A stretch of DNA of 32,000 nucleotides from Sulfolobus acidocaldarius DSM 639 (lineage in GTDB: Archaea; Thermoproteota; Thermoprotei_A; Sulfolobales; Sulfolobaceae): assembly GCF_000012285.1 (NCBI RefSeq), contig NC_007181.1, positions 2,190,001 through 2,222,000 on the forward strand, written 5' to 3'. Each line of letters opens with the position of its first letter. The first letter of the stretch is position 1. This document shows, in pieces, positions 6,151 through 27,233 of this stretch. The notes under the pieces were generated by a model. It did not search any database, was not told where the DNA came from, and worked only from the letters and a program-made list of their open reading frames with translations. A program made the translations under genes and the position numbers.

Positions 6151-6858
6151 CTATAACTTCACGTAAATTTTCTTAGTAAATCTAGACAGATGCTTTGCTA
6201 GTCCTCCTTCGCACACTACTCTTAGTGCCTTTATCTTGTCCACAGCGATCACTTTTCCGATATAGTCAAATCCGTATTTCTTCAGGGTAATAGGGGCGTA
6301 GACAGATGATATACCACTTAAGATGAGATGATCAGTTGATATGGAGGCTAAAATCTTCTCAATATTTCCCGCTACAAGAGCTGAACCGAATATTACAGTA
6401 CTATCACATGTCTCTGAGGTAAATGACGAGAAGGGCTTCACTGTAACATTATCAAAGGATCTCTGGGGAGGATTCCAGAAGTCATATATAGTTACGGATA
6501 CAAACCTATTTGTAACTGTTCCTGGCGAGTAGCCAAACACACAGAGCTTATTCCCTTCTAATACATCTATAGGATCACCATTCTCATAGCCTTCAATATT
6601 TCCCACACTGTTCAGTATTGCAACAGACACTGACCTCTCTATAGGTGAGTTCTTTAAGCTTTCAACTAAGCTTACTGCGTCGTTACCAAAAACCTCACCA
6701 CAGAGCGAGTTTTCACCTTCAGTAATAGTGTGGGAAATTCCTAAAGAACCATCACTTAGCATAACTGAAGTGTAAGCCACACCAATGCAATTATTTACAA
6801 CTTTCTTACCTTTTAATGAATGCCTTAACTCATCAATCATTTCATCTAATAGCATCAT
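6151..6858 (-). CDS. DUF4213/DUF364 (Rossmann-like, putative heavy-metal chelation) domain protein
   Basis: 235-aa ORF. The N-terminal IGVAYTSVMLSDGSLGISHT resembles the DUF4213 signature, followed by a Rossmann-like C-terminal half. Confidence 0.6.
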   Translation of the reverse strand: MMLLDEMIDELRHSLKGKKVVNNCIGVAYTSVMLSDGSLGISHTITEGENSLCGEVFGNDAVSLVESLKNSPIERSVSVAILNSVGNIEGYENGDPIDVLEGNKLCVFGYSPGTVTNRFVSVTIYDFWNPPQRSFDNVTVKPFSSFTSETCDSTVIFGSALVAGNIEKILASISTDHLILSGISSVYAPITLKKYGFDYIGKVIAVDKIKALRVVCEGGLAKHLSRFTKKIYVKL

Positions 6859-6894
6859 TAAATATTTAGATAGGGGAAATTAAAATTAAAGTGA

Positions 6895-6943
6895 ATGAAG
6901 ACGTTCCACCCGAGCGAGTGATGAGCGAAACGGTTAATACTGA
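6895..6943 (+). ncRNA. Candidate C/D-box sRNA unit 1 (weakest of three tandem units)
   Basis: C AUGAAGA 6895-6901; 12-nt guide 6902-6913; D' GCGA 6914-6917; C' GUGAUGA 6918-6924; 15-nt guide 6925-6939; D CUGA 6940-6943. The C box has one mismatch, there is no D'-C' spacer, and the second spacer is long. Confidence 0.3.
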
Positions 6944-6992
6944 TGATGATGTGGGAAGAGCCAGATTAAGATGAAGACCTCTCCTATTCTGA
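6943..6992 (+). ncRNA. Candidate C/D-box sRNA unit 2
   Basis: C AUGAUGA 6943-6949; 12-nt guide 6950-6961; D' CAGA 6962-6965; C' AAGAUGA 6968-6974; 14-nt guide 6975-6988; D CUGA 6989-6992. Confidence 0.35.
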
Positions 6993-7040
6993 TGATGACG
7001 CCGAGCACTAACGATTAGGTGAGTTCAGGACCACAGCTGA
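6992..7040 (+). ncRNA. Candidate C/D-box sRNA unit 3 (best formed)
   Basis: C AUGAUGA 6992-6998; exactly 12-nt guide CGCCGAGCACUA 6999-7010; D' ACGA 7011-7014; 3-nt spacer; C' GGUGAGU 7018-7024; exactly 12-nt guide UCAGGACCACAG 7025-7036; D CUGA 7037-7040. It has the canonical archaeal 12/12 architecture, is about 49 nt long, and is G+C-rich relative to its flanks. Confidence 0.5.
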
Positions 7041-7178
7041 AAGTATATTTGCTCTTCACCAGACTATCATCTAAATGACAAGGCTAAAATCGTTTTTAAT
7101 ATTTAATTTCAATTTAGGATAGTTATATCGTTTAATTGAAAAGACAGTTTTTAAATCTAAAGTGGTAAATTAACAAAT

Positions 7179-7658
7179 ATGAGTATGAAAAAGATAGTAT
7201 CAGATAGGGTAAGAAGAGGAACACTAAGGCTTTTAGTTTTAAGTTCATTAGCTGAAAAACCCATGTACCTATACGAGATCATAAAGAGTATAGAGACTAA
7301 GGCAGAAGGATTTTACAGACCTAGTACTGGCTCAATTTATCCTGTACTCAGGAGTCTAGCAAGGGATGGATACATAATAATACAAGAGAGGGACGGTAAA
7401 AAGATATACAGCCTCACAGATAAAGGAGTAAAAAAAGTTGAGGAAATTAAGATAGAGATCGAGTCCCTCTTTACAAGAGATCCTCTGAAGAGGAGAGTTA
7501 TTGATCTACTATTCAATATTGGACTAACTGTGCATATCAACAGGAAAAAGATTGATGATAAAGTTTTAAACCAACTTATTACTGATCTCGAGAAATGCAT
7601 GGCTTTAGTGGAAGAGGCTATAAAAAGTAAAGGAGAGAAAACAGTTACCCAGGTTTGA
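7179..7658 (+). CDS. PadR-family winged-helix transcriptional regulator
   Basis: 159-aa ORF with LLVLSSLAEKPMYLYEIIKSIE....STGSIYPVLRSLARDGYI, the typical PadR HTH/wing pattern. Confidence 0.85.
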   Translation: MSMKKIVSDRVRRGTLRLLVLSSLAEKPMYLYEIIKSIETKAEGFYRPSTGSIYPVLRSLARDGYIIIQERDGKKIYSLTDKGVKKVEEIKIEIESLFTRDPLKRRVIDLLFNIGLTVHINRKKIDDKVLNQLITDLEKCMALVEEAIKSKGEKTVTQV

Positions 7659-8398: not shown

Positions 8399-9826
8399 TT
8401 AACTTATCTTCCTATAAACCAAAACTATTGCAACTATTGCAACTATCAAGCCTATTATACCAGCTATGATACCGCCGTACACTAATGGTGTTAAACTATT
8501 TACTTTACTCTGTAGGCTGTTTAACTGACCACTCAAATTGGTTATACTACTATTTAAGCTACTGATCTTACCTTGTAATGCATTTAACTGACTACTTAAT
8601 GAACTAGCAGTACCACTCAAGGAGCTTATAGTTGAATTTAGTGAGGCTAAGGTGTTCTGCAAACTGGTGATCCTTTGCGATAATGAGCTTAGAGAGCTGT
8701 TAAGAGTTGATATCTGAGTCTGTAAGTTGTTTACCGTCTTCTCTAGGTTAGTTATATTTTGCACTAAACTACTTATCTCCTTATTCACCAAAGCCTGGAG
8801 GTTCTGGTTAGCTTGTACACTCATTAAATACTTTGTAGATAATGTTTGACCGGAAGAAGTTGTATAGTTGGCAACAATCAAGAGCTGGAACACATAGTTC
8901 TGAACAGACTCTGTTGGAGGCATAATTGTTATATTATACATACCGGCATACTTACCAGAGGTAATTACTGAGGCTTTCACTGTTTGTGTTCCATTAGGAT
9001 AGTACACCTGAGCTGAGACTGGAGCAGTTGTAACTCGCTGACCTGCAAAGGATACCTGAGCTAATATATACGCTGGGAGACCTTGATATACCACAATACT
9101 AGATAAGGACGGACCACTGCCAATTACAGTACCATTCTGTATCACATACATTGGAGCTATAGTTACTACGGCAGGAACAAGTGTAATTGTCACACTAGCA
9201 TTTTGCTGACCAGTTATACTCACTGAAGCAGTACTAGCAGCATACCCTTGAAGCGAAGCTACTAACTTAAATGTCTGGGTAACTCCTGGGAACGATAATA
9301 CAGTAAAAGTAGCAACACCTTGCGAGTTAGTAGTCTGAGTAGCTACTAGAGTATTTGAACCTGAAGTCGTATTGTAGAGCTGTACTGTTGCCCCAGCTAA
9401 TGGGGAGCCTTCCTGATTTACTACTGTTGCTGTTATCGTCGAGGTTAATGGCACATATTGCACATTCACAGATGCGCTCTCAGATGTTGTTCCCTGAACG
9501 GACAAGCTGACGGTATAAGTTCCTACGGTAGTAAATCCAGGAGTAGATCCGAATGTGGCAATAGTAGCCGTTAAACCTCCACTTGAGTTAGTTTGATAAA
9601 CGTTGTTGTATACTACATTGCCCTTAGGGTCATATACGTATAGTGTAACTAAGGCATTAGGTTGTGACTGTATGCTAAGCACTAATTGTTGACCATATTT
9701 GTAAGTCTGGTTGGGCACTGGACTGTAAAAAGTTATTCCATTTATAGTTACAGCTGAAATTGCTATTGGAGCTAAAACTAAGCTCAATAATACAATGGGA
9801 GTTAATATAGCTAAGTTCTTATTCAT
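8399..9826 (-). CDS. slaB: S-layer membrane-anchor (stalk) protein SlaB
   Basis: Signal peptide, Thr/Ser-rich beta domains, a long Ser-rich coiled coil (..SLNSSLSSLSQRITSLQNTLASLNSTISSL..) and a single C-terminal TM helix. It sits immediately downstream of slaA. I chose the ATG at 9826 (475 aa, MNKNLAIL) over the track start at 9832 because GGGTG lies 7 nt upstream of it and the length matches my recall of S. acidocaldarius SlaB. Confidence 0.9.
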   Translation of the reverse strand: MNKNLAILTPIVLLSLVLAPIAISAVTINGITFYSPVPNQTYKYGQQLVLSIQSQPNALVTLYVYDPKGNVVYNNVYQTNSSGGLTATIATFGSTPGFTTVGTYTVSLSVQGTTSESASVNVQYVPLTSTITATVVNQEGSPLAGATVQLYNTTSGSNTLVATQTTNSQGVATFTVLSFPGVTQTFKLVASLQGYAASTASVSITGQQNASVTITLVPAVVTIAPMYVIQNGTVIGSGPSLSSIVVYQGLPAYILAQVSFAGQRVTTAPVSAQVYYPNGTQTVKASVITSGKYAGMYNITIMPPTESVQNYVFQLLIVANYTTSSGQTLSTKYLMSVQANQNLQALVNKEISSLVQNITNLEKTVNNLQTQISTLNSSLSSLSQRITSLQNTLASLNSTISSLSGTASSLSSQLNALQGKISSLNSSITNLSGQLNSLQSKVNSLTPLVYGGIIAGIIGLIVAIVAIVLVYRKIS

Positions 9827-9896
9827 ACACATACACCCGATATGTTATAAATTGAGAAAAATTTAAAAAAGGATTTACTTAAAAACATTTTTCCCA

Positions 9897-17778: not shown

Positions 17779-17852
<74 letters not shown>

Positions 17853-18177
17853 CATTTATTAAATGTGTGTATTGAAACCTACATGTATACCTTTTCTATG
17901 ATAATAAGGAATAATTTAATATTGCAGAATGCGTAAATAGAGTTACTAATTTAATAAGATGTATAAATATGGATTCTTAATTTTATTTAGAATTTATTAA
18001 GTTTATTATCTAGTATATCACAGATTTCCAATTTTTCATATTATACATTTCATTGTAGAATGGAAAACACACTAAGTTGTTTATTGGTACTTTGGGTAAA
18101 AAGATGCTTATCATGCTAATCTAAGTGAGGTCTGTTTCTATCCAAAATAGTAACTTTGTTTACTCTAAATTCCCTCC

Positions 18178-18912: not shown

Positions 18913-18988
18913 GGGGCCCGTGGTCTAGCTAGGATTAGGATGCGGCGTTCGGGTCGCCGTGGTCCCGGGTTCAAATCCCGGCGGGCCC
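18913..18988 (+). tRNA. tRNA-Pro (anticodon CGG)
   Basis: Hand-folded cloverleaf: acceptor GGGCCCG/CGGGCCC; D stem GTCT/GGAT (two G-U pairs); anticodon stem CGGCG/CGCCG with loop TTCGGGT; variable loop TGGTC; T arm CCGGG-TTCAAAT-CCCGG; discriminator A. There is no intron and no encoded CCA. Confidence 0.9.
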
Positions 18989-19015
18989 AAACTACAAAGT
19001 CTTAAGTTGATTTTT

Positions 19016-27106: not shown

Positions 27107-27233
27107 TTATCTACCTCAGACCTGGCCACTTTCTTCATTAAATCAGAAAAGAATGTGCTCATCAACATATAAAAGGATTCATATATCCAATAAAAAATTA
27201 TTACTACTTTGATTTGAGGTATATAAGACGAAA

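Follow-up and report, generated by a model that had tools for sequence, protein, structure and literature searches.

Three probable box C/D small RNAs in a spacer-free row between the DUF364 and padR genes of Sulfolobus acidocaldarius

Architecture of the array

The DNA examined was a stretch of 32,000 nucleotides (nt) from Sulfolobus acidocaldarius DSM 639, referred to here as the window, in which each coordinate equals the genome coordinate minus 2,190,000. The intergenic region of interest is flanked by a DUF4213/DUF364 gene on the − strand (6151-6858) and a PadR gene on the + strand (7179-7658), both assigned by Pfam. It most probably carries a tightly packed row of three box C/D methylation-guide small RNAs (sRNAs), namely sR16, an unnamed middle sRNA and sR132, a reading to which a probability of about 0.86 was given.

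Unit 1 of this array is Sac-sR16 (6893-6943, + strand), identified by Rfam, published RNA sequencing (RNA-seq), published L7Ae RNA immunoprecipitation sequencing (RIP-seq) and conservation. It consists of a C box AUGAAGA (6895-6901), a D' guide (6902-6913), a D' box GCGA (6914-6917), a C' box GUGAUGA (6918-6924), a D guide (6925-6939) and a D box CUGA (6940-6943), and it scored 79.1 bits at 6893-6945 against Rfam family RF01143 (sR16, gathering score 70), being identical to the consensus. Unit 2, the middle box C/D sRNA (6944-6992, + strand), corresponds to the published 'K-turn sRNA' and is made up of a C box UGAUGA (6944-6949) that takes A6943 from the D box of unit 1, a D' guide UGUGGGAAGAGC (6950-6961), a D' box CAGA (6962-6965), a C' box AUGAAGA (6971-6977), an 11-nt D guide CCUCUCCUAUU (6978-6988) and a D box CUGA (6989-6992). 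Unit 3 is Sac-sR132 (6993-7040, + strand), present in published tables with the same sequence and coordinates. Its C box UGAUGA (6993-6998) shares A6992 with the D box of unit 2 and is followed by a D' guide CGCCGAGCACUA (6999-7010), a D' box ACGA (7011-7014), a C' box GGUGAGU (7018-7024), a D guide UCAGGACCACAG (7025-7036) and a D box CUGA (7037-7040). All three units carry the boxes C, D, D' and C' and the guide spacers that characterise an archaeal box C/D sRNA at the level of sequence.

In the DNA the C-type motifs are ATGAAGA at 6895, GTGATGA at 6918, ATGATGA at 6943, AAGATGA at 6968, ATGATGA at 6992 and GGTGAGT at 7018, the D boxes are CTGA at 6940, 6989 and 7037, and the D'-type motifs are GCGA at 6914, CAGA at 6962 and ACGA at 7011. 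The 10-mer CTGATGATGA occurs at both 6940 and 6989 and constitutes the two junctions of the array (6940-6949 and 6989-6998, + strand), at which the D box of unit 1 runs directly into the C box of unit 2 and the D box of unit 2 directly into the C box of unit 3 (CUGAUGAUGA in each case). The spacers between units are 0 nt (CUGA/UGAUGA), leaving no room for an internal promoter. The C boxes read AUGAAGA (one mismatch), AUGAUGA and AUGAUGA and the D box is CUGA in 3/3 units. The D'/C' pairs (GCGA/GUGAUGA, CAGA/AUGAAGA and ACGA/GGUGAGU) are 0-5 nt apart and degenerate, with the GA and UGA cores kept; several relatives have a canonical CUGA at D'.

The positions of the boxes, the junctions and the upstream TATA-like element were all exactly as given in the original prediction, made from the sequence before any database was searched. 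Its parse into three consecutive C-guide-D'-C'-guide-D units was borne out by a scanner, the Rfam sR16 model, the published tables and the conserved loci. The guide spacers of 12 + 15 nt in unit 1 and 12 + 12 nt in unit 3 also stood, whereas those of unit 2 had to be corrected from 12/14 to 12 + 11 nt, because comparison with eight homologous loci, in which the C' box of unit 2 reads GUGAAGA or AUGAAGA, places this box at AUGAAGA 6971-6977 and not at AAGAUGA 6968.

A relaxed scanner (C box with at most one mismatch, 11-13 nt, NNGA, 1-7 nt, a UGA-containing C'-like box, 10-16 nt, CUGA) applied to both strands of the 32-kb window returned exactly three + strand units (6895-6943, 6943-6992 and 6992-7040), together with sR4 on the − strand. 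Since 200 dinucleotide-preserving shuffles of the window averaged 0.07 units each and contained no abutting pair, the pattern of the array is far beyond chance. A strict C/D scanner recovered only unit 2 and sR4. Against the Rfam C/D families units 2 and 3 reached no more than 11-18 bits, short of each gathering score, and so are members of no Rfam family.

The G+C content is 47.1% for 6891-7045, compared with 26.0% over the 100 nt that follow and 23% over the 100 nt before, which agrees with the contrast originally estimated by hand. The suggestion that this patch is the mark of a structured RNA did not hold: the folding z-score of the 156-nt RNA was +0.69, giving no Watson-Crick structure beyond chance, as expected of guide RNAs. 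The G+C-rich patch is thus explained by guide and box content and not by helices.

Published expression and L7Ae binding

The small-RNA reads and L7Ae association that had been proposed as checks are both already present in published tables. Table S1 of Daume et al. (2017; PMC5539422) lists Sac-sR16 at genome positions 2196893-2196948, a K-turn sRNA at 2196939-2196987 and Sac-sR132 at 2196988-2197045, with lengths of 56, 49 and 58 nt and small-RNA reads per million of ~900-1600, ~430-630 and ~1200-1950 respectively. The published sequences of Sac-sR16, Sac-sR132 and Sac-sR4 are the same as those of the window (PMC4644070, PMC5539422), and coverage of sR16 and sR132 was also reported by Dennis et al. 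(2015; PMC4644070). The middle RNA is annotated with the remark 'K-turn sRNA… could be C/D box sRNA' and as transcribed with sR16 and sR132 (PMC5539422). An L7Ae RIP-seq peak at 2196873-2197073 (+ strand; log2 enrichment 3.77, q 9.8e-16) covers all three RNAs (PMC5539422). Because this is a single peak spanning the three units, it shows binding for the region as a whole and not for each pair of boxes.

The published boundaries differ between sources. In Dennis et al. (2015; PMC4644070) sR132 is a 76-nt region from 2196970 (window 6970), starting inside unit 2, and the middle RNA is not among the 61 sRNAs listed. The interval published for the middle RNA by Daume et al. includes the D box of sR16 and omits its own D box at 6989-6992.

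Conservation across the Sulfolobaceae

Homologous loci were reached by a search with the DUF364 protein, and the DNA around the homologues was compared on the opposite strand, just upstream of the DUF364 start. Nine loci were obtained in this way: DSM 639, SUSAZ, Sulfurisphaera javensis (L129), strain S-194 (L130), Stygiolobus caldivivus (L008) and four distinct hot-spring metagenome loci (L004, L007, L133 and L134), with L005 and L006 as near-identical copies of L004. The nine loci keep the boxes, their spacing and order and the guide cores, while the flanking intergenic DNA is not alignable. The eight loci other than DSM 639 combine conserved boxes with varying guides, as had been expected of related loci.

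Unit 1 and unit 3 are present in 9/9 loci and unit 2 in 7/9. The order unit 1-2-3, with 0-2 nt from CUGA to the next UGAUGA, is found in DSM 639, SUSAZ, L004, Sulfurisphaera javensis and strain S-194. Units 1 and 2 are fused (0 nt) in L007 and Stygiolobus caldivivus, with unit 3 located 43 or 255 nt downstream; in L007 a TATA-like ttataaa stands in front of the detached unit 3. In L133 and L134 unit 2 is absent and units 1 and 3 are 3 nt apart. Junction 1 measures 0-2 nt in seven loci and junction 2 measures 0-1 nt in five. Two further loci, one of Sulfolobus sp. A20 (L131) and one on an Acidianus-like contig (L132), have a different gene neighbourhood and no sRNAs.

The conserved guide cores are GUUCCACCC in the D' guide of unit 1, GUGGGAAGA in the D' guide of unit 2, where it is invariant, GAGCACU or GGGCACU in the D' guide of unit 3 and GGACCAC in the D guide of unit 3. 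Between DSM 639 and SUSAZ 3/146 array positions differ (98% identity), all of them in guides; beyond the array, identity over 47 nt falls to ~60%, with an indel. The detachment of unit 3 in two lineages and the absence of unit 2 in two others indicate that the units are evolutionarily separable modules. Within the Sulfolobaceae the array is old and modular, its units having been fused, detached or lost by lineage.

Predicted targets of the guides

Ribosomal RNA (rRNA) was searched in two Metallosphaera loci, found with a 35-nt 23S pattern and used as a proxy, and matches were string-checked in the S. acidocaldarius rows of published alignments. The six target strings first proposed are the correct reverse complements of the guides. 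A methylation guide is expected to show at least ~9-10 base pairs with rRNA or tRNA and a Watson-Crick pair at the fifth position upstream of D or D'. On this measure the D' guide of unit 2 has an 11-base-pair match to 23S rRNA, the D' guide of unit 1 a borderline match and the D' guide of unit 3 a candidate; for the three D guides no target was found in the sequences covered.

An unbroken stretch of 11 Watson-Crick pairs joins the D' guide of unit 2 to 23S GCUCUUCCCAC, in Metallosphaera and S. acidocaldarius alike. This was equalled by 1/400 shuffled guides, giving P ~0.0025, or ~0.015 allowing for six guides. The second U of the site lies opposite the fifth guide position and is in column 2787 of the published alignment; by our own count, anchored on A2451, it is U2513 in E. 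coli numbering, just 3' of G2505/U2506. The guide is predicted to direct 2'-O-methylation of 23S U2513, beside the peptidyl-transferase centre. This site is not among the published predictions for S. acidocaldarius. It falls in a published methylation hot spot, 4 nt away from the Sac sR7 target G2783 and 1 nt away from the Pyrobaculum sR110 target U2788, and the unit 2 D' guides of relatives have 9-11 pairs at the same place.

The D' guide of unit 1 makes 9 pairs with S. acidocaldarius 16S GGGUGGAAC, with G942 (E. coli numbering) at the N+5 position, a match that is not significant alone (P ~0.12). In relatives this guide makes 11-12 pairs at the same 16S place. We predict 16S G942 as the target of the unit 1 D' guide, a borderline assignment in which the pairing would be weakened in S. 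acidocaldarius and strong in relatives.

The D guide of unit 2 has 9-10 pairs, including G-U, with 23S CUAAGGAGUGC in the GTPase-associated region in L004, L007 and Stygiolobus caldivivus, and no match to that segment in the S. acidocaldarius and Sulfurisphaera versions. For the D guides of units 1, 2 and 3 only chance-level matches and the sRNA genes themselves were found in the window, the Metallosphaera rRNA loci and 850 kb of fetched loci.

The D' guide of unit 3 forms 10 contiguous pairs (one G-U) with positions 23-32 of tRNA-Ala(CGC), placing G26 at N+5. The gene for this tRNA was located by ARAGORN at 17779-17853 on the + strand of the window, and the match had P ~0.006 when shuffled guides were compared with the two tRNAs in the window. 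A metagenome scan showed that tRNA-Ala(GGC/UGC/CGC) genes of the Sulfolobales type share a backbone and GAGUGCUCGGUU, and every lineage variant of the guide makes 10 pairs with the tRNA-Ala segment. The variants are transitions only, opposite U28, G31 and U32, and the duplex is kept by wobble pairing. For Pyrococcus there are predicted C/D guides to G26, and some S. acidocaldarius tRNAs carry m2,2Gm26. On the strength of this pairing tRNA-Ala G26 is proposed tentatively as the target of the unit 3 D' guide, an assignment that is possible but rather more likely wrong than right. An arrangement in which both unit 3 guides flank one tRNA anticodon arm was sought as TAGTGCYCGG-N7-CCGRGTGGTCCT on metagenome contigs and gave 0 matches, intron-containing tRNAs being outside the pattern.

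Alternative explanations

Several observations weigh against the region being a row of three methylation guides. For neither guide of sR16 or of sR132 did Dennis et al. (2015; PMC4644070) offer an rRNA target ('no prediction'), and the D guide of unit 2 in S. acidocaldarius has lost the 23S complementarity seen in three relatives. Published mass spectrometry found m2,2G26, not m2,2Gm26, in S. acidocaldarius tRNA-Ala(GGC), although this tRNA, with the sequence UGCG, is in any case no match for the unit 3 D' guide. A further row, apparently tRNA-Ala(UGC), seems likewise to carry m2,2G26, in a text too garbled by optical character recognition to trust in detail. The reads of the middle unit are ~1/3 of those of its neighbours, and the published boundaries are mutually inconsistent, with the 3' end of sR16 at 6948/6949, the middle RNA at 6939-6987 without its own D box and sR132 beginning at 6988 or 6970. 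Because the boundaries overlap or disagree, processing may be heterogeneous, with the middle unit less cleanly matured; the inconsistency points either to such heterogeneity or to coverage that was partitioned and not to mapped ends.

The same low read count also speaks for the published annotation at face value, in which only sR16 and sR132 are sRNAs and the stretch between them is a guide-less linker, with box-like motifs by chance and pulled down with L7Ae through the shared transcript. In the account of Daume et al. (PMC5539422) these two are 'linked by a 39 nt RNA', with no more than 'could be' said of the middle RNA, which is also missing from the 61 sRNAs of Dennis et al. and from two metagenome lineages. 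The middle unit is, however, the only unit of the array caught by the strict scanner, with four boxes and spacers of 12 and 11 nt, and it is kept in 7/9 loci and three genera with the invariant guide core GUGGGAAGA. Its guide has an 11-base-pair perfect match in a known methylation hot spot of 23S rRNA, and a passive linker would be expected to drift as the trailer at 7044-7090 does. A linker is for these reasons considered quite unlikely. Less likely again is a ~150-nt RNA that stays unprocessed, as one particle with six kink-turns (k-turns) or kink-loops (k-loops) and a chaperone role in joining rRNA and tRNA sites. In its favour, the lack of spacers would leave exonucleases nowhere to trim between units, a single RIP-seq peak takes in the entire stretch, the published boundaries overlap at the junction, and a chaperone role of double guides has been proposed in the literature. 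Such a multi-k-turn particle had been raised as an option in the original prediction. It is disfavoured by the published tables, which list separate species of 49-58 nt for each unit, by the location of unit 3 at a distance in L007 and Stygiolobus caldivivus (in L007 behind its own ttataaa), by the lack of unit 2 in L133 and L134 and by predicted or candidate targets in three different RNAs (16S, 23S and tRNA), and we hold it to be very improbable.

With a box every ~24 nt the array can also be read as C-guide-D in a register shifted by half a unit, each sRNA running from C' to the next D' (e.g. 6918-6965). There are weak Rfam sR12 matches at 6916-6966 and 6969-7023, and the 76-nt form of sR132 starts at 6970 (PMC4644070). 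Set against these, the canonical CUGA and best C boxes, the Rfam sR16 model and the published ends of sR16 all fit the unshifted register. That register is fixed by the relatives, because the dimer of L007 and Stygiolobus caldivivus extends from the C box of unit 1 to the D box of unit 2 and then gives way to non-box sequence, and because L133 and L134 lack exactly one unshifted unit. The comparison likewise eliminates a parse into two sRNAs (6918-6965 and 6992-7040) that had been offered initially, and the likelihood of a shifted register is considered slight in the extreme. That short UGA-rich motifs happen to lie close together between two genes could be entertained, as the boxes are short and GAUGAUGA-type repeats give several overlapping matches. 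It is refuted by the shuffles without an abutting pair, the full-score Rfam match, the published expression and L7Ae binding, and the conservation across genera. The reading as three consecutive box C/D sRNAs was accordingly retained.

Transcription and maturation

Some 27 nt separate a TATA-like element, TTAAATATTTA (6858-6868, + strand), from the reported 5' end downstream of it at 6893 (genome 2196893); the element and the DUF364 start codon, which is on the opposite strand, overlap. From its position it is the array's putative promoter. Between the TATA-like element and the C box of sR16 lies a second AT-rich block, AAATTAAAATTAAA at 6877-6890. Read on the − strand this block has its centre ~27 nt before the start codon of DUF364 at 6858 and would be well placed to serve the DUF364 gene, itself probably leaderless. 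The two divergent promoters may interdigitate, with transcripts that would overlap by ~30 nt at their 5' ends. A scan for sigma-70 promoters and intrinsic terminators was set aside as inapplicable to archaea. Downstream of unit 3 is a fast-evolving 3' trailer (7041-7097, + strand), which ends in a T5 run at 7093-7097 that is a possible termination signal; the published RIP-seq peak ends at 7073.

One transcript would begin ~27 nt downstream of the TATA-like element and terminate before or at the T5 run. L7Ae would bind the k-turn of each C/D pair and the k-loop of each D'/C' pair, and Nop5 and fibrillarin would then assemble on each unit. In line with the published protect-and-trim model, cutting or hydrolysis would take place at the exposed, spacer-free D/C junctions CUGA|UGAUGA, and separate species of ~50-58 nt would accumulate, as the literature reports. 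In each small ribonucleoprotein a guide of ~12 nt is predicted to pair with its target, with methylation of the ribose that faces the fifth guide nucleotide upstream of D or D'. No RiboMeth-seq map of Sulfolobus was found in a literature search.

Maturation may be untidy or partly mutually exclusive, since published ends overlap at junction 1 and the 76-nt form of sR132 starts inside unit 2. The overlap of sR16, extending to 6948/6949, with the middle RNA, starting at 6939, is the specific hint of mutual exclusion. A bolder possibility, which we think unlikely, is that the spacer-free D/C junction, long kept over three genera of the Sulfolobaceae, stands for an organisation and maturation of guide RNAs distinct in kind and is not an accident of compaction. 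It is similarly doubtful that canonical L7Ae/Nop5/fibrillarin guides have here been laid out as a miniature TIGR array (one of guide RNAs that are tandem and interspaced) with half-edges at both ends, and an improbable corollary would be that release needs a precise endonucleolytic cut between CUGA and UGAUGA, or that neighbours mature in a mutually exclusive manner.

Neighbouring genes and other features of the window

The neighbours of the array were assigned by Pfam to DUF4213/DUF364, PadR and ThiN, the fourth being a hypothetical protein without a Nop domain. No Tas gene adjoins the array according to Pfam searches of the neighbouring proteins, and the same neighbours are present in relatives. 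Most of the relatives examined (loci L004-L008, L129, L130 and L134) have a Pyr_redox_2 gene of ~375-380 amino acids between padR and the sRNA array, which is absent from S. acidocaldarius and from L133. The poorly conserved sequence at 7044-7090 may be a remnant of the loss of this gene. At L004 1898-1914, and also in L005 and L006, the unit 3 homologue and the Pyr_redox_2 gene share ~17 nt in antisense at their 3' ends, an arrangement that is common among archaeal C/D sRNAs. As a result of this overlap part of the unit 3 D guide is constrained by coding sequence in the L004 lineage. An antisense C/D-like match to Rfam SNORD103 (GUGAAGA ... CUGA) at 7025-7078 on the − strand (E = 5.3) was rejected as probably due to chance, being half-sized and in a region poorly conserved between strains.

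Of the Sulfolobus C/D box families in Rfam, two are recognised in the window: sR16 and sR4. Sac-sR4 is a solitary C/D box sRNA outside the array, at 27111-27166 on the − strand (genome 2217111-2217166; RF01125, 84 bits), with predicted 23S targets at G2116 and G2092 (Dennis et al. 2015; PMC4644070). A tRNA-Pro(CGG) gene is located at 18914-18989 on the + strand. On hot-spring metagenome contigs L026, L027 and L040 tRNA-Pro(CGG) is found near tRNA-Ala(GGC), and L027 and L040 additionally carry tRNA-Ala(CGC), which suggests that the tRNA-Pro/tRNA-Ala neighbourhood is conserved.

An open reading frame of 477 amino acids at 8399-9832 (− strand) encodes an N-terminal hydrophobic segment, a body rich in Ser, Thr and Val, a long heptad-like repeat run (…SLxSxLxSL…) and a C-terminal hydrophobic anchor, and has the look of a protein that is secreted or exposed on the surface. 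Most precomputed Pfam matches of its SUSAZ homologue are weak or faint, those to CarboxypepD_reg and Baculo_PEP_C excepted.

Significance

Much of the locus was already known: two of the RNAs are catalogued, the third was flagged in a supplementary table, and the clustered and overlapping arrangement is published. What is new is evidence for the middle RNA as a conserved C/D sRNA with a target, the predicted 23S site, the candidate tRNA target of sR132, and the age and modularity of the array. S. acidocaldarius probably has one working C/D box sRNA beyond the published 61. The pairing with tRNA-Ala G26 provides a testable lead for sR132, some tRNA ribose methylations of S. acidocaldarius being without an assigned guide or enzyme.

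The conserved, spacer-free junction offers a clean natural substrate for the question of how archaeal C/D sRNAs are separated; protection by the ribonucleoprotein and trimming of exposed ends do not suffice to account for the separation in an array that leaves nothing to trim. Were the organisation to prove a distinct one, the array would be a natural intermediate between solitary C/D sRNAs and tandem Nop-domain guide arrays, and would give a handle on the nuclease that matures archaeal C/D sRNAs. The general picture is unchanged, as clustered and even overlapping archaeal C/D sRNA genes have already been described.

Comparison with known systems

Unit 1 does not differ from Sac-sR16 (RF01143), to which the 16S pairing of the D' guide is added here. 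Unit 3 is Sac-sR132 (Dennis et al. 2015; Daume et al. 2017), the published extent of which varies between 76 nt from 2196970 and 58 nt from 2196988. Unit 2 is the L7Ae-enriched 'K-turn sRNA' at 2196939-2196987 (PMC5539422), in a table that does not give its guide, target or conservation.

The triple array was initially regarded as a departure from solitary sRNA genes. It is not unprecedented, because archaeal clusters of two or three and overlapping D/C boxes have been published: a significant fraction of archaeal C/D sRNA genes is clustered by two or three, indicating polycistronic transcription (Breuer et al. 2021, PMC7994747, citing Tripp et al. 2017). In Pyrobaculum sR34 and sR40 are co-transcribed with a spacing of 10 or -4 nt, the D box of P. 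neutrophilum sR34 lying inside the C box of sR40, and sR21-sR100-sR101 form a polycistron (Lui et al. 2018; PMC6009581). The S. acidocaldarius array resembles these clusters in being on one strand, reportedly co-transcribed, spacer-free or D/C-overlapping and fluid in its spacing, with members lost between related species. It differs in that Pyrobaculum belongs to the order Thermoproteales and its guides are unrelated, and in that the overlap there concerns a pair, whereas here three units are joined by a 0-3 nt junction over three genera of the Sulfolobaceae.

Polycistronic snoRNA clusters of plants and yeast, together with the archaeal clusters, likewise hold several guides per transcript and have their maturation set by boxes and ribonucleoprotein assembly and not by the flanks. 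In the eukaryotic clusters the spacers are cut by enzymes of the RNase III type and the ends then trimmed by exonucleases, while the array of S. acidocaldarius has no spacer.

In layout the array is also similar to TIGR arrays (Faure et al. 2025), with an alternation of 'edge' (D+C, CUGAUGAUGA) and 'loop' (D'...C') elements, two short spacers per unit and half-edge ends (C alone at the start, D alone at the finish), and TIGR guides and C/D guides are both bound by Nop-domain proteins. Unlike TIGR arrays, it has no adjacent Tas gene and comprises only three units, with k-turns bound by L7Ae and with predicted targets that are riboses of rRNA and tRNA and not DNA. Furthermore, the D'/C' elements differ between its units, and only the D/C junction is repeated exactly, twice. 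The resemblance to TIGR arrays is one of layout only.

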